Source of the DNA: an uncultured archaeon
Lineage (GTDB): Archaea; Aenigmatarchaeota; Aenigmatarchaeia; CG10238-14; SCSR01
NCBI GenBank assembly: GCA_964373665.1
Contig: CAYJVM010000001.1
Span: forward strand, 93,325 to 157,324
Length of the DNA: 64,000 bases
Reading direction: 5' to 3'
Both the position numbers and the translations under genes were made by a program. The notes below the pieces were generated by a model. That model ran no database searches and was not told the origin of the DNA. It saw nothing but the letters and a program-made list of their open reading frames with translations. This document shows positions 3,040 through 64,000 of the stretch, in pieces (position 1 is the stretch's first letter; the number at the start of each line of letters is the position of its first letter).

Positions 3040-3915
3040 ATGATAGAAGAAAAACAAAAAATAATTTTGGTTGCGCTTTCAATAATTCTATTTGTAATTA
3101 TAGGTCTTAGTCTGGCATGGATTTCTCAACAAACAGTACTTTCAGAAGAGCCAGGATTCCTGTTTATCGCTTTCTTAGCATTCGCTGCAGGCATTACTAT
3201 GATAGTTCTACCCTGTACTCTCCCATTAGTATTCGTAATTATTCCATTATGTGCTGGCAAAGGATACAAAAAAGGTTTTACAATGGCGCTTTTGTTTGGT
3301 TTAGGTTTGACAATAACCATAACCATTTATGGCGTAATCTTAGCTTCACTTGGAAGCTATTTTGGGTTAAGCAGAGGTTCTTTTATACTGTTTTTGATTA
3401 TAGGATCCTTAGCTTACCTCTTCGGTTTATCAGAACTTAGATTGCTAAACTTAAGATTACCTCACGCGAGATTACCGAGTTTTATACAAAAAGGCAGTGA
3501 TTATTGGAAGAGTTTCGGAACTGGCTTGGTTCTTGGAAATGTGGGCATTGCATGCCCTAATCCTTTGTTTTATGTCCTTCTTATCTACATAGCAGCACTT
3601 CCTGACCCATTCACAGGAGGCTTTGTTGCACTTCTGAATGGAATAGGAAGAGCCACTCCATTAATTTTGATGGCGGTCCTTGCTATTTTAGGAATACAGA
3701 CAACTCGGTTTATTGTTGAAAAGCGAATAGCTATAGAAAAGCTAACAGGTTATGGATTGGTAATATTTGGTGCATTTGTATTAACTGCTTGGATTTTCAA
3801 AACTCCGGGCTTATGGATAGCTCAACTACCGCCAAACTTGTGGGTATGGGCAACCTTTATTTTGCTCTCTGTGTTGCCTGCATTAATTAAACGTTTTGTA
3901 AAGGTGAAAGAATGA
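3040..3915 (+). CDS. CcdA/DsbD-family thiol-disulfide transporter-like membrane protein
   Basis: A polytopic membrane protein with conserved Cys in two transmembrane helices (LPCTLPL and IACPNPL). Confidence 0.55.
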   Translation: MIEEKQKIILVALSIILFVIIGLSLAWISQQTVLSEEPGFLFIAFLAFAAGITMIVLPCTLPLVFVIIPLCAGKGYKKGFTMALLFGLGLTITITIYGVILASLGSYFGLSRGSFILFLIIGSLAYLFGLSELRLLNLRLPHARLPSFIQKGSDYWKSFGTGLVLGNVGIACPNPLFYVLLIYIAALPDPFTGGFVALLNGIGRATPLILMAVLAILGIQTTRFIVEKRIAIEKLTGYGLVIFGAFVLTAWIFKTPGLWIAQLPPNLWVWATFILLSVLPALIKRFVKVKE

Positions 3916-5954: not shown

Positions 5955-7502
5955 ATGAAGTGGAAATCCTTCAAGCACAACGGCGTCTACTTCCCTCCTG
6001 AATACCAGTGGAAAAAGCTGTCAGTCAAAATCAAAGCCGAGAAAGTGCAGCTGAATCAGGAGCAGGAGGAAATGCTCTATGCTTGGACGAAAAAAATCAA
6101 CACACCATACGTTCAAGACTCTGTTTTCCAGCAGAATTTTTTATCAGACCTAAAGAAAGTCCTTCCCAAGTTCCAGCATATCACAATGGATGACATTGAC
6201 CTCTCCGAAATTATCAAGTACCAGGAGAATGAAAAGAACCTGACTAGAGAAGAAAAGAAGATGCTGGCCGCAGAAAGAAAGAAGCAGAAAGAAGCGCTAA
6301 AGGAAAAATACGGCTATGTTGAGATAGACGGGAACAAGGCAGAAGCGGCAAACTGGATGGCAGAGCCTCCCGGAATTTTCATGGGTCGTGGCCAGCACCC
6401 GTTGAGAGGAAAATGGAAGAGAAGGATTATATCCGAGGATATAATATTAAATCTGAGCAAGGACGCGGCGGTTCCTGAAGGCAAGTGGAAAAAAGTCATC
6501 CATGGAAACGATTTCATGTGGATGGCATCGTGGCATGACGAGCTCACCGACAAGATGAAATATGTGTGGCCTAGCGAAGGCTCTGTTCTAAGGCAGAAGA
6601 GGGAGAAGGAAAAGTACGACAAGGCAATGTCCATCGACGACAACTTGGAGAAGATAAGAAAGCATATCCATGACGGTCTAAACTCAAAAGACGAAAAAAC
6701 AAGAAAAGTAGCTACAGTATGCTTCCTGATAGACAGGCTTGTAATGAGAGTGGGTGACGAAAAGGATGAGGACGAGGCTGACACTGTAGGAGCTTCGACG
6801 CTAAGGGTGGAGCATATAAAATTCAATCCCGATTCCATAGAATTCGATTTCCTTGGCAAGGACAGCGTCAGATGGGAGAAGAAACTGTTGTTCTCGGACG
6901 TTGACCCGACATTCGTGAAGAACATGAAAGAGTTTACCAACGGGAAAAAACCGGACAGCCTGATATTCGACGGCATAAGCTCGCGTGATGTCAACCAATT
7001 TTTCGGCAAGTGCATCAAAGGCCTGACGGCGAAAACATTCAGGACATACCACGCCACAAACACTCTGGTATCCTACCTGACATCTGTGAAAGTCAAATCT
7101 AGCGACACCGCGCAGCAGAAACTGTACCACGCAAAGATGGGCAACCTAGAGGTGGCGATAGCCTGCAATCACAAGAAGACGCCGCCGAAAACATGGGAGG
7201 AAACTTTCGCAAGGAAGCAGGAGAAACTAACAAAATGGATGAACACTAGTCCGAAGACAGAAAAGCAGGCGGAGAAGCTCAAGGAAAGGATAGAAAAATT
7301 GAAGATGGACATAGAGCTGTCGAAGAAAACTAAGGAATACAACCTGGGGACTTCGTTAAAGAACTATGTAGATCCGCGCGTTTACAAGTCATGGCTTGAC
7401 AAGATGGGGATAGACTGGACAAAACTATACACTTCAGCGTTGCAGAAAAAGTTTTCATGGGTCACCCGCTCAAAAGTCAAATGGGAAGACGTCGTGAGAT
7501 AG
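5955..7502 (+). CDS. DNA topoisomerase IB (eukaryote-type)
   Basis: FRTYHATNT and LGTSLKNYVDPRVY match the topoisomerase IB catalytic region (the active-site Tyr lies within LGTS.KNY.DPR). The lysine-rich N-terminal region is also typical. Confidence 0.85.
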   Translation: MKWKSFKHNGVYFPPEYQWKKLSVKIKAEKVQLNQEQEEMLYAWTKKINTPYVQDSVFQQNFLSDLKKVLPKFQHITMDDIDLSEIIKYQENEKNLTREEKKMLAAERKKQKEALKEKYGYVEIDGNKAEAANWMAEPPGIFMGRGQHPLRGKWKRRIISEDIILNLSKDAAVPEGKWKKVIHGNDFMWMASWHDELTDKMKYVWPSEGSVLRQKREKEKYDKAMSIDDNLEKIRKHIHDGLNSKDEKTRKVATVCFLIDRLVMRVGDEKDEDEADTVGASTLRVEHIKFNPDSIEFDFLGKDSVRWEKKLLFSDVDPTFVKNMKEFTNGKKPDSLIFDGISSRDVNQFFGKCIKGLTAKTFRTYHATNTLVSYLTSVKVKSSDTAQQKLYHAKMGNLEVAIACNHKKTPPKTWEETFARKQEKLTKWMNTSPKTEKQAEKLKERIEKLKMDIELSKKTKEYNLGTSLKNYVDPRVYKSWLDKMGIDWTKLYTSALQKKFSWVTRSKVKWEDVVR

Positions 7503-15065: not shown

Positions 15066-15111
15066 GCAAACCAGCTTAACTTTAGGTCGATCGAAGGAGT
15101 CCAAGGGTTGT

Positions 15112-15444
15112 ATGGCGATGGGTCTGGAAACCATCCAAAAGGTAAAAGAATTGGAAGATAGGTCAGACCAACTTATACAGCAGGCGGAGATTAAAAAAAA
15201 AGAACTGATTGAAAAGGCCAACGCCAATGCGCTGGAGATTTCTACCAAGTCCTATGAACAGGCCGTAGCTGACAGGCAGAAAAGGCTGCAGGAGCTCGAG
15301 GCAAAGATTTCTAAAGAGAAGGAGAAAATATCCAAGGACACCGAAAGGCACATAGAGGGCATCCTTTCCAAGTCCGAAGAATTCGTCAAAAGCATAGACA
15401 GGATCGTGTCCCAGTTCCTCGCGAAAGTGAAAGAGGGGAACTGA
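15112..15444 (+). CDS. atpH: A-type ATP synthase subunit H
   Basis: A 110-aa coiled-coil protein at the head of the A-ATPase operon. Confidence 0.6.
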   Translation: MAMGLETIQKVKELEDRSDQLIQQAEIKKKELIEKANANALEISTKSYEQAVADRQKRLQELEAKISKEKEKISKDTERHIEGILSKSEEFVKSIDRIVSQFLAKVKEGN

Positions 15445-17232
15445 ATGTTGGCTCCCGAGCATATGGTAAAGGTGAGAATACTCGGAAGCAGGAACCAGAT
15501 GAAGAAGGTCGTAAGCGAGCTTTACGGCATGAAGCTGCTGCATATAACAGAGTTCCCGCAGGCAGGAAAGTTTGAGACGGGAAAACCGTTCAAGGAAGCT
15601 GAATTCTACTCCAAGCATCTCATCAAGCTGCGCTCGATGATATCGTTTTTGGGACTAAATGGCGACGGCAAGAAAGTCTACGTCAAGGCCAACTTGAAGA
15701 AGCTCCTCAAGGCCGAGAAGGAGTTTGAAAAGCTGAGCATGAGCTTGGAAAAACTGAAGGAGAGAAAGGCCATGCTTGAGCAGGCGATAGGAAATCCAAT
15801 CTCGATGATAGCGACACAGTCAGACAAGATTTCAAAACCCAGATCGCTGAGGACGTTCGTCGGAGTTGCCGACAAGGCATTAATTGAAAGTATTGAAGAA
15901 TCAAGCTTGAGCCACGAGTTGGTCCATAAGCAGATCGGCAATAAAATCGCATTAATATTCACAGTCCCGGCGAAAGACGAAGCCAAGGCGGTCGACTTGC
16001 TGAACGAATTCAATTTCGAGGAAAAGCAGCTTCCTGAGATGAGGCATGAAGATGCCGCCAAGGAGCTTGGCGAAGCAAATGTAAAAATATCCGATATAGA
16101 ATCAAAGTTCAAGCATTTTTCAAAAGAGAATGAAACCCTCGTGCTGAATATGGAGCACAGCTTCACCGAACTTATCGAGAAAAGCGAGGCGCCTCTGAGC
16201 TTTATGGTGTCGAAAAGGACGTTCGTCGTCGAGGGCTGGGTGCCGAAGGAAAGTTATGAAATGCTTGAAAGGAAAATATCATCTGCCGCCCTGAATAAGG
16301 TTAGCTTGGAAACGCTGGAGACTGTAGAGTCGCCTCCGATAAAATTGAACAACCCCAAGCCGGCGCAGCCGTTTGAGGAGCTGTTGAAGATGTATGCGTA
16401 TCCAAAGATACACGAATTCGATCCTACAGTAATACTTCTTTTCACGTTCTCAGCTTTTTTCGGCTTTATGCTAGGCGACATCGGCTACGGGCTTTTCCTT
16501 CTTGCATTATCGTCCTTTTTATTCGTCAAGCTCAAGGGCGCTATGAAGTCAATATCGTACGTCATGATTTTCTGCTCCTTGTCCGCCATAGTTTTCGGCG
16601 CCGTATTCGGCGAGTTCTTCGGCATCGAGATCATACATCCGCTAATACAGAGGGCACATAATGTGCAGACCATGATATTGATATCGGTTATACTAGGCAT
16701 GATCCACATAACCGCGGGATTCGCATTGGGCTTTATCACAAAGATGAAAGATCACGGTTTCATGCACGCTCTATTCGAGAAGGGCTCATGGATACTTGTC
16801 GAGGTTGCGGCTGTGGCACTGGCGCTAGGAATAATGATGCCTATGCAGCCTCTTGTGTATGCAGGAGGTGCTCTTATGGCAGTGTCTGTCCTTATGCTGC
16901 TGAAGGGTGAAGGCATAAAGGGCGTGATAGAACTTCCCGGGCTACTCGCCAATGTGCTCTCCTACATAAGATTGTTCGCCGTCGGACTGGCTTCAGTCTC
17001 CCTGGCGATGGTCGTCAATAAATTGGGAGGCTCTATGATGCAGAACGGAGGCCTGTGGATTTTTGCAGCGGCTATGGTCTTCACACTGGGCCATGCAATC
17101 AACATCGCTCTTGGAGCCATCGGTCCGTTCCTTCAGACGCTCCGTCTTCACTATTTCGAGTTCTTCGCCAAGTTCATCGAGGGTGGAGGCAGTCCTTATA
17201 TCCCTTTTGGGAAAATAAAGAAATGGAGGTAG
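15445..17232 (+). CDS. atpI: A-type ATP synthase subunit I (a subunit)
   Basis: A soluble N-terminal domain followed by a C-terminal polytopic membrane domain containing the conserved Arg, in operon context. Confidence 0.85.
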   Translation: MLAPEHMVKVRILGSRNQMKKVVSELYGMKLLHITEFPQAGKFETGKPFKEAEFYSKHLIKLRSMISFLGLNGDGKKVYVKANLKKLLKAEKEFEKLSMSLEKLKERKAMLEQAIGNPISMIATQSDKISKPRSLRTFVGVADKALIESIEESSLSHELVHKQIGNKIALIFTVPAKDEAKAVDLLNEFNFEEKQLPEMRHEDAAKELGEANVKISDIESKFKHFSKENETLVLNMEHSFTELIEKSEAPLSFMVSKRTFVVEGWVPKESYEMLERKISSAALNKVSLETLETVESPPIKLNNPKPAQPFEELLKMYAYPKIHEFDPTVILLFTFSAFFGFMLGDIGYGLFLLALSSFLFVKLKGAMKSISYVMIFCSLSAIVFGAVFGEFFGIEIIHPLIQRAHNVQTMILISVILGMIHITAGFALGFITKMKDHGFMHALFEKGSWILVEVAAVALALGIMMPMQPLVYAGGALMAVSVLMLLKGEGIKGVIELPGLLANVLSYIRLFAVGLASVSLAMVVNKLGGSMMQNGGLWIFAAAMVFTLGHAINIALGAIGPFLQTLRLHYFEFFAKFIEGGGSPYIPFGKIKKWR

Positions 17233-23248: not shown

Positions 23249-23334
23249 TGCAGGGGTCGGATAGCCTGGTCAATTCCGCCAGCTTGAGGTGCTGGTCTCT
23301 TAGTGAGTACGAGAGTTCGAATCTCTCCCTCTGC
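23249..23334 (+). tRNA. tRNA-Leu(GAG)
   Basis: The acceptor stem is GCAGGGG/CCTCTGC, the anticodon stem is CCAGC/GCTGG with loop TTGAGGT, the T-arm is GAGAG-TTCGAAT-CTCTC, and there is a 15-nt variable arm. No intron. Confidence 0.85.
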
Positions 23335-23366
23335 ACAGCTTTCTTAACAGTTAACCAAAGAATAAT

Positions 23367-23723
23367 ATGCTCAAAACGGAAGAATTAGTAGAAGCGCATG
23401 ATAAAATAATTGAAGAAAGTGGGGGTCATAGTGGAGTTTTGAATTTAGGAAATTTAGATTTTATAGTATCACAAATTAATACAACTAAAGACATTTATAC
23501 AAAAACTGCAAGAGCTTTGTACGGAATAATAAAAACGCATCCTTTTGTTGATGGTAATAAAAGAACAGCAATTGCTGTATCAGAATCCCTCTTACGAGAG
23601 AACGGTCTGAAGTATAAAGCAAGCGATGAAGATTTATGGGACATCGTGCACAATATTAATAAAGAAGAAATGACATTTGTTAAAGTGTTGAATTGGGTTA
23701 AAAGTAAGGCAGACAAAATATGA
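23367..23723 (+). CDS. Doc/Fic-family toxin (death-on-curing)
   Basis: It carries the Fic motif HPFVDGNKRTA. No Phd antitoxin lies upstream; the tRNA-Leu does. Confidence 0.8.
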   Translation: MLKTEELVEAHDKIIEESGGHSGVLNLGNLDFIVSQINTTKDIYTKTARALYGIIKTHPFVDGNKRTAIAVSESLLRENGLKYKASDEDLWDIVHNINKEEMTFVKVLNWVKSKADKI

Positions 23724-23818
23724 CAACATTAGATTATGTTAAGCAAACGTTGAAGGAAAGAAAGGAGTTGTTTAGAAAACTTGCTAATGAAGACAAATAC
23801 CTATTTAAGAAGGGCTAA
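23720..23818 (+). CDS. 32-aa ORF overlapping the doc stop codon (ATGA); possible cognate antitoxin or leader
   Basis: The overlap with doc suggests translational coupling. The peptide MTTLDYVKQTLKERKELFRKLANEDKYLFKKG is charged and helical. Confidence 0.25.
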   Translation: MTTLDYVKQTLKERKELFRKLANEDKYLFKKG

Positions 23819-23858
23819 TTTAGTTCGAATCTCTTCACCCGCTCCATGACATTCAAGC

Positions 23859-54509: not shown

Positions 54510-54635
54510 GGGCCCGTAGCTCAGCATGGTAGAGCAGCTGATGCCAAGTTGAAGCTTTTAACCATGTGTGAAAAAGCATTGATTCCCAGATGAAAGGAAA
54601 CCAGTTGGTCGAGGGTTCAAATCCCTCCGGGCCCA
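54510..54635 (+). tRNA. tRNA-Gly(GCC) with ~50-nt intron (Trp not fully excluded)
   Basis: The acceptor stem is GGGCCCG/CGGGCCC, the D-arm is GCTC-AGCATGGTA-GAGC, the anticodon loop is ATGCCAA with U33, the T-arm is GAGGG-TTCAAAT-CCCTC, and the discriminator is A. Confidence 0.65.
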
Positions 54636-54807
54636 TAAAGACTCGTACTTAGTTGTATGCGAGTCTTCTTTATCGCCTTCTCGGCCTCATGCGTCTAAGT
54701 CACTTTTAATGCATCGGTAATGTAGTGAGGTTAGTGAAGCATAAGGAATGTGCATGGGTCTTGCCGTCCATGTAGCGTTTATATGAAGCATCTACTAATT
54801 ACTTTCT

Positions 54808-55176
54808 GTGTTCTCAACAGGTCTCCTCCGTCGTGTGACGGTTAAAAGGCTGGAGCTAGGGAAATCGAAGGAAGAGTTACGTATCGCATTACACATCTAC
54901 GAATGGCAAATCGCTTATCTCCAAAATCTTAATTCGTCAGAGATACGGCAGATGGTGTCTACAAGAAAGAGGATACGATATCTGTCTAGGTCTCTACCAC
55001 ATCAAGTAGGGAAGGCGACAGAATCGCTGGTCAATGATTTGGACGTTAATCTTATCAGCCGACTGAGAAATGAGAAACTTAATGGCCGTGTCAAGAAGAT
55101 ATTGGGTAATAACAGTTATCTTAAACTGGCCAGAATGATTAACAGTGGCAAAGCAAAGTCAAGTAAAGTAAACTAA
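54808..55176 (+). CDS. hypothetical protein (inside putative integrated segment)
   Basis: ORF only. Confidence 0.3.
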   Translation: MFSTGLLRRVTVKRLELGKSKEELRIALHIYEWQIAYLQNLNSSEIRQMVSTRKRIRYLSRSLPHQVGKATESLVNDLDVNLISRLRNEKLNGRVKKILGNNSYLKLARMINSGKAKSSKVN

Positions 55177-55182
55177 TCGCCC

Positions 55183-55461
55183 TTATCTTCTTTGTCTATT
55201 CTGTTCTTCAAGACATGAGCCGTGGGCGTAGCCGGAGTACCAACCGTACTTGCGGGTGTATATCTTGACGGCGTCAAACATCCTGTTGCCTTTTCCACAG
55301 AATGTACATACACGATCTTCGAATCTTGTTGAAAATGATGCTGTCCCTTTCCTCGAACCTCCTTTACCCATTTGACTGATGAGCCATATACCGCCGCCGA
55401 CGATCGCAACCCCTATGATGAAGTAGACTGTTCCCATGTGCCCTCCGCGAACCTCCACCAT
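55183..55461 (-). CDS. small membrane protein with a C-x-x-C...H/C zinc-ribbon-like tail
   Basis: An N-terminal transmembrane helix and the motif CTFCGKG...HGSC. Confidence 0.3.
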   Translation of the reverse strand: MVEVRGGHMGTVYFIIGVAIVGGGIWLISQMGKGGSRKGTASFSTRFEDRVCTFCGKGNRMFDAVKIYTRKYGWYSGYAHGSCLEEQNRQRR

Positions 55462-55684
55462 CTCTGGGGATGATACGCAAGGCGAGACACGCAGTCAAGA
55501 CCACAGGCTCAAGTTTTTTCATGATCAATCATGATAGAAGAGATAAGTGGCAAGCTGAGTACATTGACCCATGCGACTGCGATTCAGGGTGGGTGAGCCT
55601 TCGGGCAATCAGACCTGAAGGCGAAATCTCGGCCGATGCCAGCCGAAGCGGCGAGCACGAGACCTGAACCGCTTAGCGTGCCGG

Positions 55685-55700
55685 TCCCTCCGGGCCCATA
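55685..55700 (+). repeat. direct repeat identical to the 3' end of tRNA-Gly (tccctccgggcccata)
   Basis: A 16/16 match to positions 54622-54637. It is preceded by gtgccgg. Confidence 0.7.
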
Positions 55701-55776
55701 CCTAAATGGGTAAATCCCAGTTCATTCTGCCGTCAACTTTATATGTTCCAAAGACCCACTAATTAGTGGGTATAGT

Positions 55777-56031
55777 ATGCCTGTAGTGAAGTTAGACGAA
55801 AAGGGAAGGATACAGCTCCCGAAAACATTCAGAAAGGAACTGCATCTAAGACCGCGCCAACCTCTTGTTGTCAAAAAGCAAGGGGAACTTCTCACCGTGA
55901 GCAAAGTGACCAAAGTCAGTCCTAATGAGGATCCTCTGCTCAGGGACATTATTCTGAATCCTCTCAAGAGCAAGAAAAAGGTCACCAAAGAACTTCTCGA
56001 AGAATTGAAAGACGAAATGTGGTCCGAGTGA
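55777..56031 (+). CDS. vapB: VapB-type antitoxin (SpoVT/AbrB domain)
   Basis: VKLDEKGRIQLPKTFRKELHL is a swapped-hairpin motif. Confidence 0.6.
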   Translation: MPVVKLDEKGRIQLPKTFRKELHLRPRQPLVVKKQGELLTVSKVTKVSPNEDPLLRDIILNPLKSKKKVTKELLEELKDEMWSE

Positions 56032-56423
56032 TCCTAGTCGATTCGAATATCTGGATTTTTGCTGAAGTCAAAGGCGGCGACGAGCATTATCTGGCAGTTG
56101 AAAAGTTGCGGCACCAACTTGGGCGGGGTGTTGTAACCAACGTAATAGTATGTTCGGATGTATTTCATTTGCTTAGCAGGATGTTCGGCTCTGCCGTCGC
56201 GAGGGCTAGACTGGATACGATACTTAATCATCCGGCTGTCGAATGGCACGAGTTCACCCGGACGCAGATGCTAGAAGCCGTGAGATTGTCTCATGCGAAG
56301 CTGTTGCGCATCAATGACGCACTGATTGCTCAACAAGCCAGTGAATTGAACGTTCCAATCCTCACCGACAACGTGAAGGATTTCAGGAAAGTCAAGGGCA
56401 TTGAAATTATCCCGTTAAGATAA
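56019..56423 (+). CDS. vapC: VapC PIN-domain toxin
   Basis: ILVDSNIWIF, ...ND and ...TDN are the PIN acidic residues. Confidence 0.75.
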   Translation: MVRVILVDSNIWIFAEVKGGDEHYLAVEKLRHQLGRGVVTNVIVCSDVFHLLSRMFGSAVARARLDTILNHPAVEWHEFTRTQMLEAVRLSHAKLLRINDALIAQQASELNVPILTDNVKDFRKVKGIEIIPLR

Positions 56424-56476
56424 TTGCCCACGTTTAAGAGGGATAGCCACATGGACCTGAACCATTTGAGCCTTGG

Positions 56477-56489
56477 TCCCTCCGGGCCA
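56477..56489 (+). repeat. second direct repeat of the tRNA-Gly 3' end (tccctccgggcca)
   Basis: A 12-nt exact match to the tRNA 3' strand. The upstream context gacctgaacc...ggtccct parallels repeat 1. Confidence 0.6.
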
Positions 56490-56497
56490 TCCTAAAA

Positions 56498-57118
56498 TTA
56501 CTTCCTCAAAACTCCAAACGCTTGATTTGTTCCCATTTTTTGGAAGAAGCCTAATACTATGTTAAGCATACCAAGATGCTCTACTAAATACGCGCGATTC
56601 AGCGGACCGACATCAATCGGTTCATATCCTAGATCACTAGCCAGTTGTGAAACCTTCTCTTTGGCTGTTTGGTCATCGCTACAGATGAAAACGTTCGCTT
56701 TTCCTTCTTTAAAACTGAGTGACGATTCAAGAACTTGGGCGAAAAGTGTATTAAAGGCTTTGACTATTTTCGCATCTGGAACAATCTTTGCAATCTCTTC
56801 TGATGCAGATGTTGTAACATCCAAACCACTGAAATCCTGTTTAAGCGGATTTGAAATATCGACCAGCACTTTTCCTTTCAAATTTCCTGCAGTCTTTAGA
56901 ACATCATTCATTGCACTCCACGGCACTGCCAATATCAAAACATCGCCAAACTCAACGGCCTCCTTTATAGAACCTCCCATGAACTTTCCTACAGACGCAG
57001 ACAAATTTCTTGCCTTCTCAGGTTCCCTGGAACCGATAAAGACTTCATGTGATGTCTTCGCCAAGCTCTTTGCGAAAGCGGTTCCCATATGACCGGTTCC
57101 TATTATTCCTATCCTCAT
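56498..57118 (-). CDS. NADP oxidoreductase, coenzyme-F420-dependent family (Fno/Npd-like)
   Basis: A Rossmann N-terminus (MRIGIIGTGHMGTAFA) with a P5CR-like fold. Confidence 0.55.
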   Translation of the reverse strand: MRIGIIGTGHMGTAFAKSLAKTSHEVFIGSREPEKARNLSASVGKFMGGSIKEAVEFGDVLILAVPWSAMNDVLKTAGNLKGKVLVDISNPLKQDFSGLDVTTSASEEIAKIVPDAKIVKAFNTLFAQVLESSLSFKEGKANVFICSDDQTAKEKVSQLASDLGYEPIDVGPLNRAYLVEHLGMLNIVLGFFQKMGTNQAFGVLRK

Positions 57119-57127
57119 ACTCTACAC

Positions 57128-57625
57128 TTATCCGATGTAACTTAAATTAGTTTCGTCGAAACCCTTCACGATTTCGATATGCGGCATTCTATTCGGCTTC
57201 CATCCCATGCTTGCATAAATGACCTCAGGGAACAGTCTTGTCATGTCCTTGGAGATTATTGCAACAGGATGGTTCCTCCCAAAGGCCTTCTCGCTAACCA
57301 TAGTCGTCGCAACACGATTATAATTCTCATCAAGTATTCCTATTGTGTGCAGGTATTCGTGAAGCAGCAGGTGAAAAATATAATGCTTATAGTATTCCGG
57401 CTTGGTCTGCTCGATAACATTCATTGGGGCCTTGTTTAGAACAATAAGATTCGACCCGACAGGATGGAATGCGCCTATGAATGTTCCAGGTTTCCCTCCC
57501 AAGTCGGATAGCCCCAGCATTAGGCCGGCGCGCCGCCTGCCTAAGAACTCTTTTACAACTAACTTGACGATTTCAAAAAGTTCTGAGACACCTTGCGCTT
57601 CTTCGAGCATTTCCGTGTAATTCAT
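57128..57625 (-). CDS. putative HExxH metalloprotease
   Basis: It contains the motif LLLHEYLHTIG. Confidence 0.4.
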   Translation of the reverse strand: MNYTEMLEEAQGVSELFEIVKLVVKEFLGRRRAGLMLGLSDLGGKPGTFIGAFHPVGSNLIVLNKAPMNVIEQTKPEYYKHYIFHLLLHEYLHTIGILDENYNRVATTMVSEKAFGRNHPVAIISKDMTRLFPEVIYASMGWKPNRMPHIEIVKGFDETNLSYIG

Positions 57626-57632
57626 AAAATCA

Positions 57633-58253
57633 CTAAAATCCTACATTTTCCTTGATTAAAATCATGGTAATTCTTCCCGGCCTTTCTTTGTTTATCACCA
57701 GCAGCTTGCTGACAAAACTTCCCGGAACTCCGTACGCTTTCTTGGCGCGTTCGCTTTCTAGAGGCAATGAATGTTCGTAAATTCTCTCAAGCCCTTCTTC
57801 AAAAGTCTTAACTATCTTGTTCGTGCCTACAATCCAAATTACATTTCCCGCACAGTAGGCATAAGCCGGCAACTGACTTCCAGAATTGGATGCAACCAGT
57901 ACTTTGCCATCTTGTGTAACTGCGTGCACGCTCCCAATAACCCATTGAGGTGCAGCACCTAACTGATTCATTTCCTGCCATTGCTTGCTTCTATCCATTT
58001 TCATTAATTTCTTACGAACAGGATTGAATCTATCTGAATTGTTTATCTCGTTAGTTATACCTGTCTCATCCAGAGTAACGGAAGTCATGTTCATTACCTC
58101 AGCGCCTTTGGGCATCATTTCCAAGACTTTCTTCCTTGCATCTTCCCTGCTGTTAACAACTACAGCCTCTATTCCATTACTTTTCAATGCATTGATCGTC
58201 TTTTCAATTTCCTTATCAGTTGCTAATTTCTCCCATTTTGTCATAACAAACAC
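57633..58253 (-). CDS. LUD-domain (LutC/YkgG-like) protein
   Basis: Length and conserved Gly/Ser blocks match lactate-utilisation LUD-domain proteins. Confidence 0.45.
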   Translation of the reverse strand: MFVMTKWEKLATDKEIEKTINALKSNGIEAVVVNSREDARKKVLEMMPKGAEVMNMTSVTLDETGITNEINNSDRFNPVRKKLMKMDRSKQWQEMNQLGAAPQWVIGSVHAVTQDGKVLVASNSGSQLPAYAYCAGNVIWIVGTNKIVKTFEEGLERIYEHSLPLESERAKKAYGVPGSFVSKLLVINKERPGRITMILIKENVGF

Positions 58254-60548: not shown

Positions 60549-60633
60549 GGGCCCATAGCTCAGCATGGTAGAGCAGCTCGCTCTTAATTTTGGGGTTACG
60601 AGACGGTCAAGGGTTCGAATCCCTTTGGGCCCA
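60549..60633 (+). tRNA. tRNA-Lys(CTT) with ~11-nt intron
   Basis: The acceptor stem is GGGCCCA/TGGGCCC, the D-arm is GCTC-AGCATGGTA-GAGC, the anticodon loop is CTCTTAA, and the T-arm is AAGGG-TTCGAAT-CCCTT. Confidence 0.7.
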
Positions 60634-60752
60634 CTGCCGTTTGGGTTTGAAACCCCTTTAAGGACACTGAATCCGTACTTCGATGGGTCCGGAGACGGAC
60701 CGGCGTCGACAGGGCCAGCATTGGACTCTTCGGTTTCAGCGGAGGGTCTGCC

Positions 60753-61217
60753 GTGTCGGTGCTGGTAGCGGGTACACGTCCAAGCTGGGTGAAGTCTCTG
60801 GTCGTATACACGCTGCCATGCGACCTCTCCGGCTACCTGTGGTATTTCGAAAGGTTCGCTCCTCGCTCGCTGGATCGTTTCTATACGGACGGGAAGGCTT
60901 GGCTCCCTGGTTTGGGGGACTATCTGAAGAGGTCGTTTCTAGACGACCTCTTCAACCACAATATCAAGCGAGAGATTGCGCGCCTAAGGATACCGATGCT
61001 GCTGATTCAGCCAGACAACGATGACGAGGTGCCAAAATGGTGCAGCGACCAAGCGTATGAGCTAAAACCAGAACCGAAGAACTATTTTCTCATCAAAGGG
61101 ACTCATACTATGCATTTGCGTGACGCCTCAGGTGGGCCAACTGGTTGGAACTTTGAACAGGAGGAAGAAGTGACCGGAAAGACGTTGGAGTGGTTCAAGA
61201 CAACGCTCTCAACGTGA
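60753..61217 (+). pseudogene. C-terminal fragment of an alpha/beta-hydrolase (dienelactone-hydrolase/peptidase-like)
   Basis: IPMLLIQPDNDDEVP and KGTHTMHL resemble the catalytic Asp and His blocks. No N-terminal nucleophile-elbow region is present. Confidence 0.4.
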
Positions 61218-61706
61218 GAGATAGACCGACCGTTGAAACTCGAGGACGTCAGACAAACATAGTGAGAATGGGCCGAGGATGGTGTCTACCTCCGTTTCAC
61301 CCAAGGCCATTCTATAGCCGCGCGAGTCATCGATCACGTGTATCCACTCGATGTACGGTACGTAACGAGGCAGGGCTGATCCTACAGCCTGGTACCCGGC
61401 CAATTGGCCACGGATGGTTAGGAGTTTGAGCGGGTTGGACAAGGTGAACTGGATGGCACTCTTAAATTCCCCGGGACGGCCGCCGAGCCGTGTCTGGTCA
61501 CGATATCCCTTTAGGTGGCCGAACAGGAAGTCCTCTCCGGGGAGAAGCGGGTGGGTTGATCCAAGCTGAATTTGGCGTCGATAACCCTCCTCGCTCATAA
61601 CATGCGTGGTTAGCAGCACCGGCTCGCCGTACTTAAACGGGTGCTTCATGAACATGTCGTCCACTGGGGAATAAAACGTCTGTAACAACCCTTCCATAAT
61701 AATCAA
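61209..61706 (-). CDS. hypothetical protein in GC-rich insert
   Basis: An ORF with ~58% GC. Confidence 0.3.
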   Translation of the reverse strand: MIIMEGLLQTFYSPVDDMFMKHPFKYGEPVLLTTHVMSEEGYRRQIQLGSTHPLLPGEDFLFGHLKGYRDQTRLGGRPGEFKSAIQFTLSNPLKLLTIRGQLAGYQAVGSALPRYVPYIEWIHVIDDSRGYRMALGETEVDTILGPFSLCLSDVLEFQRSVYLSR

Positions 61707-61724
61707 ATTATATTGTGCACTTGA

Positions 61725-62045
61725 CTATAAATACATTCCCTCGATAGGAATTACCTCGGTCGCGGGCGGAACGGAGCAATAGCTAACTGCCAAGACATCG
61801 CCAGCGGGCGTTCCGGCGACGAGAGATCGGACTAGATCGACCCGCTCTCCAAACGACCCATTGCCAGAGCAGCGTTCAGGTTCAGCCCCCTCCGTGCAGC
61901 TACCCAGACCACCGATGACGATGACCTTGCGGTCTTGCGCAGGGGCCTGAGTAAGACGTGCTTCCGAAACAAGGGGGAGGTGGAATGAGGATGCTGCCAA
62001 GAATGCTATGAAAAAAAGGGCCGCTCGAACACCGCGCTTCTCCAT
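61725..62045 (-). CDS. signal-peptide-bearing fragment, possibly the 5' part of a disrupted gene
   Basis: A signal peptide and a Cys-rich segment. It is on the same strand as the downstream ORF and in a different frame. Confidence 0.25.
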   Translation of the reverse strand: MEKRGVRAALFFIAFLAASSFHLPLVSEARLTQAPAQDRKVIVIGGLGSCTEGAEPERCSGNGSFGERVDLVRSLVAGTPAGDVLAVSYCSVPPATEVIPIEGMYL

Positions 62046-62090
62046 AGCCTTCCTCCCTGGTGAAATGATGAGATTCCGGGGCTCGATGTA

Positions 62091-62705
62091 CTATAAACCG
62101 AGGGTGAGTATGAAAAAGACCACGTGCGTGGGAAAAATGGGTACCAAGAGTGACAGAAGTGCGACAAGAGTAGCTTGTGGAGCACTTAGGCGGTCCATGA
62201 TAGCAAAACCGCGGTAGCTCAGGCGGAAGGACCACACGAGAGACCCTAGCTGAGCAAGTAACAGAGTCCCCTGAACAATCTCTATGGAAAGTGGACCGCT
62301 AACGGTATTCTCGGACAATGAGAACATGAGAACCGTTATGAAGACCCAATGAAAGACGACGAAGGGGGCTAGGCCGAAAATGACCGCTTGTGCTGTATTT
62401 GCAACCTCAAGTCTGCCCATTGCAAACTTCACGACAAAAGCGACGAGCGTTGCAGTAGCGTAGAGGAACAGTCCGCTGCCCAGCGGGATTAGGGGTACGG
62501 GGGCCCAAGTCTCGTGATGTGCCAAGAACGAGGGACCCGCAATGAGCGTGAACAGTAGAGAGGTTGCGAGCAGCATGCCTGCCAAGTAGATAAATGCGGA
62601 CCTAGTCGATCGGCGCTGTTCAGAGCCTGGGAAAAACCGGGAAAACGCAGCTAAGAGGCGGCCGATATAAGGAGTTTGTTTGGAGGCTAAGGAGGTGGTG
62701 GACAT
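62091..62705 (-). CDS. polytopic membrane protein
   Basis: Five to six transmembrane helices; GC-rich. Confidence 0.35.
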   Translation of the reverse strand: MSTTSLASKQTPYIGRLLAAFSRFFPGSEQRRSTRSAFIYLAGMLLATSLLFTLIAGPSFLAHHETWAPVPLIPLGSGLFLYATATLVAFVVKFAMGRLEVANTAQAVIFGLAPFVVFHWVFITVLMFSLSENTVSGPLSIEIVQGTLLLAQLGSLVWSFRLSYRGFAIMDRLSAPQATLVALLSLLVPIFPTHVVFFILTLGL

Positions 62706-63789
62706 AATACAAGTAGGGTTTCGACAAGCTTAAAGATAAGGGTAGGTTAGCACTATCGGACGTTTGCTGCGGATGTCACCGTGACCAGGAAGGCTCTTCG
62801 TCCTTCGCTTGGTTGATCGTGAGGTTCTGAAGGTTGGCCGCAGCAGCCTGAGCCACACCCCACACTTGATTGCGAATTCCTCTGCGGGGCAAGCGTCCGG
62901 CTCAGACAGGATCAGGCGGCGGGCGAACGGATAGCGATGCAGCCGCTGGCGAGAAAGGGTATTCAGGTGGTAGGCGGCGGGTAAGCACGCATGGTTAAGT
63001 TTCGGGGCTTCTTATAGGGGATAAACGTCGACTAGCCGTCTAGGCCAAGCGAATAGACCAACCCTCGCCTACTGGGGAAACGAATCGCCTGTCTTTGCTC
63101 ACTGAGGCAGCAAGGCAGGCGATCCTCTTCGTGGTTGTGAGAATGCCGCGAGCAATGTTTCGGGCCTGCCGACGAGTGACCGGGTGCCCTATTCGACAAT
63201 TGTAAGCCAGAATCAGGCCAGCCAACTGGTCACTTAGATGTTGATGACAAGTCATAAAAGTACTATGGCTTCCATGATATATATACTTTTCAGGGCCTGT
63301 ACAACGCTCCTGCCTGACTGCAGGATACTTCAATGGTGATCCGTCCAGGCGCAAGAAGAATTGCCCGCTATGGAGGACAGCCCCACTCCTGTCGCGTTCC
63401 CGCTCATCGGTTGAGATTGGCGACCGATAGTGCTTGCCTGGAAGGAAGAAACGTGGGATTCATGGTTCTCGTTCCTTTGCGGTCTCGGGGCGCCGTCGAG
63501 TACGTAGGCCGACAAGAGATGCCGCTGGGAATCAGGCGCTGCCGCGGGTGGGCTGGCTGGCTCTCTATGCCCACTGGGACTTCTGCCGATTATCGACCAA
63601 GAAAGCACTCACCATCTCTGGCTGGCGGCCTCTCGGTTACTTGGTCATCGTCTTCGCGGAGGTCGGACCCATCATAGTCCGATCGGATCGGATGTCAACC
63701 CATCTTCGGTGGGTCGACTGGCCCTTCTCCACGCCGAAGCGGGTCAGATGTGGCGCCGAGCGCGAGATTCAAACCTGTTCCTGTGCCGG

Positions 63790-63803
63790 TCCCTTTGGGC
63801 CCA
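63790..63803 (+). repeat. direct repeat identical to the 3' end of tRNA-Lys (tccctttgggccca)
   Basis: A 14/14 match to 60620-60633. It is preceded by gtgccgg and marks the return to AT-rich sequence. Confidence 0.7.
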
Positions 63804-64000
63804 TCGACCTGGATAATCAAATATCTTTATACAATCTAAATTACTATACATGAGAATTCCTATAAGCATTTTATTTATAATATCCTTTTTGATAATACCC
63901 GTGGCACATGCTGAAGTTGATAGCATACCTTTAACATTCGTTTCCGAAAACTCCAATGGCACACTCTTCAACCTTGGTGAATTAAAAAATTATGAAGTTG

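Follow-up and report, generated by a model that had tools for sequence, protein, structure and literature searches.

Related attachment-site-like repeats close three short inserts behind the tRNA-Lys genes of an Aenigmarchaeota genome: apparent relics of mobile elements from a single tRNA-targeting family

In the 64,000 nucleotides of an uncultured archaeon analysed here (henceforth the window), two tRNA genes are each followed by a displaced copy of their own 3′ end, which raises the question of whether such copies are attachment-site scars of related integrative elements or arose by another route. The initial annotation had described two att-like repeats with a common 12-nt core, one behind a tRNA-Gly and one behind a tRNA-Lys gene, as attP cores of one family of elements that target different tRNAs by swapping the 3′-most bases. 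The locus of this member of the Aenigmarchaeota (DPANN) comprises three short inserts (1.06 kb, 0.79 kb, and 3.17 kb), each lying directly 3′ of one of two tRNA-Lys genes and each closed by a related, attachment-site-like module of about 60 nt that consists of an arm and a core. The inserts have the look of decayed relics from a single family of mobile elements that target tRNA genes, a familiar sort of feature.

Target genes, inserts and related loci

The target genes and the insert bodies are located as follows.

54510-54635, + strand: intron-bearing tRNA-Lys(UUU) gene, putative left end (attL) of the tandem inserts (Rfam tRNA model, 51.8 bits with a 61-nt insertion; orthologue alignment)
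54636-55639, no strand: body of insert 1, two small orphan ORFs (54808-55176, +; 55183-55461, -) and non-coding DNA (no convincing Pfam or PHROG match, no NCBIfam match)
55699-56452, no strand: body of insert 2, vapB-like antitoxin gene (55777-56031) and gene of a PIN-domain VapC (56019-56423) (Pfam)
60549-60633, + strand: tRNA-Lys(CUU) gene with a short anticodon-loop intron, putative attL of insert 3 (Rfam tRNA model, 56.5 bits)
60634-63744, no strand: body of insert 3, hydrolase fragment, three orphan ORFs and about 1 kb of GC-rich DNA (composition, homology searches)

The gene upstream of inserts 1 and 2 had been taken for tRNA-Gly, an assignment that had to be given up. Its orthologues lie directly after the L37e gene in four related contigs (L181, L185, L193, and L194) and all have the loop of tRNA-Lys(UUU), i.e., CTTTTAA in two of the four and CTTTTA followed by an intron in the other two; the window gene, aligned with them, has the same CTTTTAA loop. 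In its anticodon stem, the 5′ strand is interrupted by an additional insertion of 13 nt, ATGCCAAGTTGAA, and the ‘GCC’ contained therein was presumably behind the glycine call. The second gene has a 13-nt insertion according to Rfam and the anticodon loop CTCTTAA. With tRNA-Lys(UUU) at 54510-54635 and tRNA-Lys(CUU) at 60549-60633, both targets are hence lysine isoacceptors; the two genes are about 90% identical outside their introns and 97% identical over the first 30 nt, and both are complete and contiguous through T-arm and acceptor stem in the Rfam alignment. ARAGORN, run over the window, reported only a tRNA-Leu and one tRNA of undetermined type (60549-60633) and missed the gene at 54510-54635.

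Multi-intron tRNAs are common in these Aenigmarchaeota, the window gene with its extra 13 nt in the anticodon stem (54540-54553) being one example. The L194 orthologue (about 3490-3660) has introns in the acceptor/D region, in the anticodon stem, at position 37/38, and in the T-loop (59/60), and the tRNA-Lys(CUU) of L185 (20087-20229) has at least three introns, falls below the Rfam threshold, and lies just downstream of a LAGLIDADG-like ORF. ARAGORN misses or mislabels these multi-intron tRNAs.

The VapC of insert 2 matched the Pfam PIN domain (E = 1.2e-11), and its vapB-like partner resembles antitoxins of the MazE/MraZ type (E about 3e-4, just under the curated cut-offs). The three orphan ORFs of insert 3 (61209-61706, 61725-62045, and 62091-62705) are all encoded on the minus strand. 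Among the insert proteins, those of 92 aa (insert 1) and 204 aa found only themselves as homologues, and one of 165 aa has three distant matches at 31-34% identity, one of them on an uninformative contig of 2 kb. At the left end of insert 3, the similarity of the ORF at 60753-61217 to alpha/beta hydrolases (BioH/RutD-type) is weak and confined to their C-terminal 60-70 residues. Overlapping ORFs in other frames precede this ORF, which looks like a pseudogene. The stretch at 62706-63789 (about 1.08 kb, 58-61% GC) gave no credible ORF, no six-frame Pfam match, no Rfam match, and no tandem repeats; it may be a gene degraded past recognition. A toxin-antitoxin pair, orphan genes, and such a hydrolase pseudogene are cargo typical of decayed islands. 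The GC content of insert 3 is 50-61% versus about 44-46% before the tRNA gene, the right flank is visibly AT-rich, and the switches in composition coincide with the tRNA end and with the repeat. The region of inserts 1 and 2 does not stand out clearly as foreign by its base composition, which counts against an origin from integrative elements.

In three of the relatives (L185, L193, and L194), tRNA-Lys(UUU) is directly followed by the next gene without an insert, and the same holds for the intronless tRNA-Lys(CUU) of L193, which lies behind a DUF5654 gene; the protein identity of the relatives (74-83%; 76-83% in the neighbouring NYN protein for the closest ones with long contigs) is too low for a base-exact alignment of the empty site. 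L181 (GCA_016187385.1) shares synteny with the window, whose 165-aa neighbour corresponds to one of 166 aa in L181 at 74% identity. Directly 3′ of tRNA-Lys(UUU), L181 has a 0.6-kb ParE toxin pair (15111-15746) in place of the 2.5 kb of the window, and this pair is followed by neither a 14-nt repeat nor a copy of the tRNA end. As the relatives are either empty at this position or carry other cargo, the lineage has a variable insertion point immediately 3′ of tRNA-Lys. Islands are expected to be absent in relatives or compositionally foreign, and here the DNA is absent in L185, L193, and L194 and insert 3 is foreign by its GC content.

Two further observations concern the gene order. A block with a LUD-domain and a PadR gene lies after tRNA-Lys(UUU) in the window (56498-58253) and in L181, and after tRNA-Lys(CUU) in L193 (12579-13553), which points to rearrangement in the surroundings of both lysine tRNA genes. 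At 56498-57118, the end of insert 2 is adjoined by an F420-oxidoreductase-like gene that is missing from that position in L181.

The best named homologues of the neighbouring NYN-domain protein are from Aenigmarchaeota. Two Logan assemblies, made from separate runs, contain the same junctions, the inserts are present on every contig found, and a 174-kb NCBI contig with the same insert protein is listed in the protein index. Assemblers normally work with k-mers longer than 14 nt; since the repeat is shorter than that, a chimeric join is unlikely.

Core and arm of the repeat modules

The modules at the right ends of inserts 1, 3, and 2 are designated c1, c2, and c3, respectively, and their parts are listed together with the cores inside the intact tRNA genes.

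54622-54635, + strand: core inside the intact tRNA-Lys(UUU), TCCCTCCGGGCCCA (direct-repeat analysis)
55640-55684, + strand: arm of c1, ending in GTGCCGG, homologous to the arms of c2 and c3 (nhmmer, E = 9e-12)
55685-55698, + strand: core copy of c1, TCCCTCCGGGCCCA, end of insert 1 resembling a displaced fragment (exact repeat)
56453-56489, + strand: c3, arm GGACCTGAACCATTTGAGCCTTGG and degenerate core TCCCTCCGGGCC-A with one C deleted, closing insert 2 (nhmmer, E = 1.2e-10; local alignment with c1)
60620-60633, + strand: core inside the intact tRNA-Lys(CUU), TCCCTTTGGGCCCA (direct-repeat analysis)
63745-63789, + strand: arm of c2, non-tRNA, ending in GTGCCGG (nhmmer, E = 1.8e-13)
63790-63803, + strand: core copy of c2, TCCCTTTGGGCCCA, end of insert 3 resembling a displaced fragment (AT-rich host DNA follows)

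Both strings quoted in the initial annotation are exact (gtgccggtccctccgggccca at 55678-55698 and gtgccggtccctttgggccca at 63783-63803), and the 12-mer that they share, GTGCCGGTCCCT, does differ from the genuine T-loops (TTCAAATCCCT at 54616 and TTCGAATCCCT at 60614). Nor is it frequent at random locations: with up to one mismatch it occurred only at 55678 and 63783 in the 64 kb, where 0.14 occurrences are expected, and two or more were obtained in 1 of 100 shuffles. After each GTGCCGGTCCCT, the final bases of the upstream tRNA gene are repeated. It had been held that only these final acceptor-strand bases follow the host tRNA, whereas the true direct repeat measures 14 nt (T60 to A73), is exact and in the same orientation as the tRNA at both loci, and reaches from the last base of the T-loop through the 3′ strands of T-stem and acceptor stem to the discriminator. 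Because this core is copied from the tRNA, the TCCCT within the shared 12-mer (5 of the 12 bases) is tRNA sequence common to both lysine isoacceptors, and the non-tRNA part of the 12-mer is only GTGCCGG. For an archaeal att site, a core of 14 nt is short, and this too counts against integrative elements.

The cores of the two isoacceptors differ by 2 nt (CC vs TT), and at each locus both copies carry the dinucleotide of their own tRNA. Since one of the two copies would be derived from the element whichever side of the dinucleotide the strands were exchanged on, the attP of each element would already have matched its target, unless later mismatch correction homogenised the copies. Target swapping via the 3′-most bases is therefore logically sound as far as a matched attP goes, but it amounts to just 2 nt between two lysine isoacceptors and not to a change between different tRNAs.

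As a separate observation, the bases just past the core are alike in the three repeats (ATACCTAAAT at 55699-55710, AT-CCTAAAAT at 56490-56500, and ATCGACCT at 63804-63812), and this similarity is absent after the intact tRNA genes. It may be due to chance, or to an identity of attP and attB that reaches just past the tRNA end.

Upstream of the cores, the similarity of c1 and c2 continues into DNA that is not derived from tRNA. Anchored at the core, their arms are identical at 26 of 37 and at 30 of 45 positions; 200,000 random pairs sampled from these inserts never attained 26/37 (maximum 23), and with GTGCCGG left out the remaining 19/30 was matched by 2 of 200,000 random pairs. A third copy had been overlooked: c3 (GACCTGAACC...TTGGTCCCTCCGGGCC-A, with its degenerate core from 56477) closes the vapBC cassette and shares GACCTGAACC with c1 at equal spacing. 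The relation between the repeats that had been seen in a 12-nt core is thus real, but the non-tRNA similarity is longer (26/37) and extends to an additional copy. As the arms resembled neither of the tRNA bodies, whether in spliced or in unspliced form, they are DNA of the inserts and not longer duplications of the tRNA, and an origin as diverged tRNA halves was discarded on the same ground. The homologous arms lie on the island side of the fragment, and the attP regions from which the three right ends derive were therefore related.

A structured RNA or an attC-like hairpin was also considered for the modules and rejected, as neither a conserved nor an unusually stable fold was found on either strand. 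Folds of both DNA strands were no better than those of shuffled sequences (z-scores of -1.1 to +1.2), and the only fold that the modules share is a 5-bp hairpin that never varies plus a 2-bp stem.

Searches for an integrase and for further family members

A tyrosine or serine integrase was to be looked for near the repeats, and none was detected in the inserts, in about 10 kb on either side, or among the larger window ORFs scanned. In detail, the insert ORFs gave no recombinase in Pfam, PHROG, or NCBIfam (no convincing match to one in Pfam or PHROG, none in NCBIfam), a six-frame Pfam scan of 62650-63810 was empty, and Pfam annotation of the genes within about 10 kb on either side contained no integrase. 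Between 1 and 50 kb, no integrase was present in the 25 scanned ORFs, out of 32 listed with at least 200 aa; five of the 25 were without any Pfam match. Several candidates were set aside. The ORF at 63040-63354, which has a faint HxxR...Y look, was regarded as a possible degraded integrase and found no match among PDB sequences. A split integrase across attP was dismissed, as no ORF spans the three reconstructed junctions (the longest stop-to-stop frame has 137 codons). An apparent excess of synonymous changes in a minus frame (WARRDRH...) ends after 19-29 codons with no upstream ORF, and the conserved minus frame at the reconstructed attP stops within 46 codons.

Public collections (IMG/VR, JGI metagenomes, GTDB genomes, phages, and plasmids) were screened for further members of the family; none came to light in the viral, metagenome, phage, and plasmid sets, and none among the genome matches listed. 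The pattern TGCCGGTCCCTNNGGGCC had 61 matches in viral contigs, all attributable to chance, and at least 118 in GTDB genome contigs, where those listed were likewise all chance; nearly all matches of this overly permissive pattern fell into high-GC bacterial DNA (e.g., collagen-like repeats), with an upstream identity of at most 15/30. In metagenome contigs, GTGCCGGTCCCTNNGGGCCCA had three matches in DNA of 62-63% GC, none with arm similarity, two of which were the same sequence (one copy beside a TPP riboswitch). In viral contigs, GGTCCCTYYGGGCCCAT had five matches: one lies on a contig that encodes a 954-aa protein and a packaging-ATPase-like protein and may, judging from these two, belong to a giant virus, and the other four lacked arm similarity. 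The 42 matches of ACCTGAACCN{10,13}GGTCCCT never ran on into the core, and the inserts had no blastn match among the phages and plasmids. A profile built from the three modules found nothing comparable in the four relatives (L181, L185, L193, and L194). An integrase-bearing relative with the same att site was not found in the window, the relatives' loci, or the viral, metagenome, phage, and plasmid sets.

The proposal of one family of integrative elements is supported by homologous non-tRNA arms beside a tRNA-derived core and by DNA with the appearance of an insertion, but neither a recombinase nor a member outside this locus was found in the searches described. For these two reasons, the designation ‘integrative element’ is drawn from the anatomy of the scars, and with no integrase found the most fitting description of the inserts is as fossil or cis-mobilisable (CIME-like) remnants.

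Elsewhere in the window, the tRNA-Leu gene (23250-23336) is followed by a gene of the Fic/Doc family (23367-23723, Pfam E = 2.6e-11) and then by a fragment resembling a tRNA 3′ end, AGTTCGAATCTCTTCACCCGCTCCA, whose T-loop is that of tRNA-Leu and whose acceptor strand is different; this region (23250-23848) is another toxin islet beside a tRNA, with another type of repeat. A full-length eukaryotic-type DNA topoisomerase IB is encoded at 5955-7502 (Pfam Topoisom_I_N, Topoisom_I, and Topo_C_assoc; E down to 2e-67).

Origin of the modules and comparison with known systems

From the layout of the repeats, c1, c2, and c3 are probably fossil attR ends of integrative elements from a single tRNA-Lys-targeting family, arranged in tandem at one of the two genes. 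In this reconstruction, related small elements would have integrated site-specifically at the 3′ end of one or the other tRNA-Lys gene, leaving the three modules as right-hand junctions. On the circular element, attP would have had two parts: an element-specific arm of about 45 nt, with GTGCCGG as its last bases (in the oldest copy, TTGG), and after it a copy of the final 14 nt of tRNA-Lys, T60 through the discriminator base. Strand exchange inside these 14 nt, carried out by an integrase of the tyrosine type, would have kept the tRNA gene intact at the left end (attL) and given the far end the element arm and the second 14-nt copy; this strand exchange, the circular intermediate, and the order of events are what we infer from the scars. 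Integration at tRNA-Lys(UUU) would have occurred at least twice, because the regenerated tRNA gene is again a target: the newer insert (54636-55698) adjoins the tRNA, and the older vapBC cassette (55699-56489) would have been pushed outward. At tRNA-Lys(CUU), a GC-rich element of 3.2 kb (60634-63803) may have integrated with an attP that matched this isoacceptor (TT, not CC). The integrase would since have been lost, and the inserts would be fossil or at best movable by an integrase acting in trans.

The most serious competitor, though still unlikely, is local duplication or gene conversion, whereby an old chromosomal piece of arm plus core was copied between the neighbouring tRNA-Lys loci by ectopic recombination and unrelated DNA built up between the copies by other routes, with no family of elements involved. 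All three copies do lie within 9.3 kb, in direct orientation and at two paralogous genes, around which gene order varies between relatives, and the searches of inserts, collections, and relatives returned neither an integrase nor outside kin. Such copying between loci sits poorly, however, with the CC or TT of its own tRNA in every copy, and with GC-rich DNA that begins exactly at the tRNA end and stops exactly at the repeat. Moreover, the arms are just about 70% identical and hence not a recent local copy, and no arm-like sequence was found behind the tRNA-Lys genes of the relatives examined. Plain coincidence, in which the shared 12-mer would be nothing but GC-rich sequence beside two similar tRNA ends, can draw on its five tRNA-derived bases and on the five occurrences of GTGCCGG by itself in the window versus 3.1 expected; it is hardly credible in view of a core-anchored identity that no random pair attained and of a third copy with the same layout.

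In an explanation at the level of RNA, the repeats would be 3′ exons of tRNA-Lys, either alternative or relic, that the archaeal splicing endonuclease would join; in front of them would lie a split-tRNA leader or the 3′ portion of a T-loop intron. The attraction of this explanation is that identity with the tRNA begins exactly at position 59/60, where the L194 orthologue of tRNA-Lys(UUU) has a 15-nt intron (GGTTCAAA[AGCGAAAGCTGAAAT]TCCCTCCGGGCCCA), and that these archaea have many multi-intron tRNAs. A 3′ exon of this kind would be needed by its gene and would show a bulge-helix-bulge at the junction, yet both upstream tRNA genes are already complete, and inspection of the sequence beside the junction revealed no TGAA-type partner for pairing with the T-loop, which a bulge-helix-bulge would need. 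Together with arms unlike tRNA or intron sequence and modules that fold no better than shuffled DNA beyond the invariant hairpin, this leaves the RNA-level origin very improbable.

An intact tRNA gene with a displaced 3′ fragment at the ends of an island, crossover in the T-stem region, and tandem arrays are standard for tRNA-targeting islands (PMC4383910). With these Islander-type islands, the locus shares the intact tRNA at one end and the direct repeat of its 3′ fragment, cognate and in the same orientation, at the other (54622/55685, 60620/63790, and the degenerate 56477), as well as a tandem array at one tRNA and foreign or variable cargo. It differs from them in having no tyrosine integrase gene inside the inserts, in the small insert size (0.8-3.2 kb), in a core of only 14 nt, and in its DPANN host and the lack of known relatives of the elements. 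The identity block, which runs from the T-loop/T-stem region to the 3′ end, corresponds to the T-loop/T-stem sublocation class of tRNA-gene integration sites that was reportedly distinguished by Williams in 2002.

CIMEs, described in Streptococcus thermophilus, are cis-mobilisable, att-flanked remnants of integrative elements that have no integrase. Like them, the inserts have att-type repeats on both sides at a conserved chromosomal target, occur in tandem (accretion), and contain no recombination or transfer genes; unlike CIMEs, they have no known cognate integrase-bearing mobiliser, and their mobility is putative. In SSV-type (type I) archaeal elements, attP lies within the integrase gene, which is split upon integration. 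The archaeal host, the tRNA 3′-end target, and the direct repeats at both ends are common to these elements and the inserts, but no ORF crosses the reconstructed attP of the three inserts (at most 137 stop-free codons), and neither int(N) and int(C) fragments nor any integrase homology was found.

Integron cassettes often carry toxin-antitoxin cargo, and the inserts resemble them as small one- or two-gene units in tandem, each ending in a related module of about 60 nt. Integrons are set apart by an IntI gene and by the attC site, an imperfect inverted-repeat hairpin with R″/L″-L′/R′ boxes; here, no such hairpin and no IntI gene were found, and the core is a tRNA end. It is improbable, but conceivable, that the tRNA-end modules of arm and core are working recombination sites of tiny integrase-less cassettes, i.e., that the tRNA-Lys genes of DPANN archaea serve as docks of an integron-like platform. 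The recombinase would then be encoded elsewhere, and cassettes would be caught successively at a dock placed at the T-loop intron position 59/60.

Read as fossil attR ends, the modules have an anatomy that is otherwise as expected for decayed tRNA-targeting islands. For annotation, the locus illustrates that tRNA finders unable to handle multi-intron archaeal tRNAs mislabel or miss such targets, by which the first reading was misled. The mobile elements of DPANN archaea are poorly known, and the exact attR sequence now on hand may serve as bait for an active element and its integrase. In this Aenigmarchaeota genome, both tRNA-Lys genes would have been used as landing sites, with tandem accretion at one of them and with toxin-antitoxin cargo retained.
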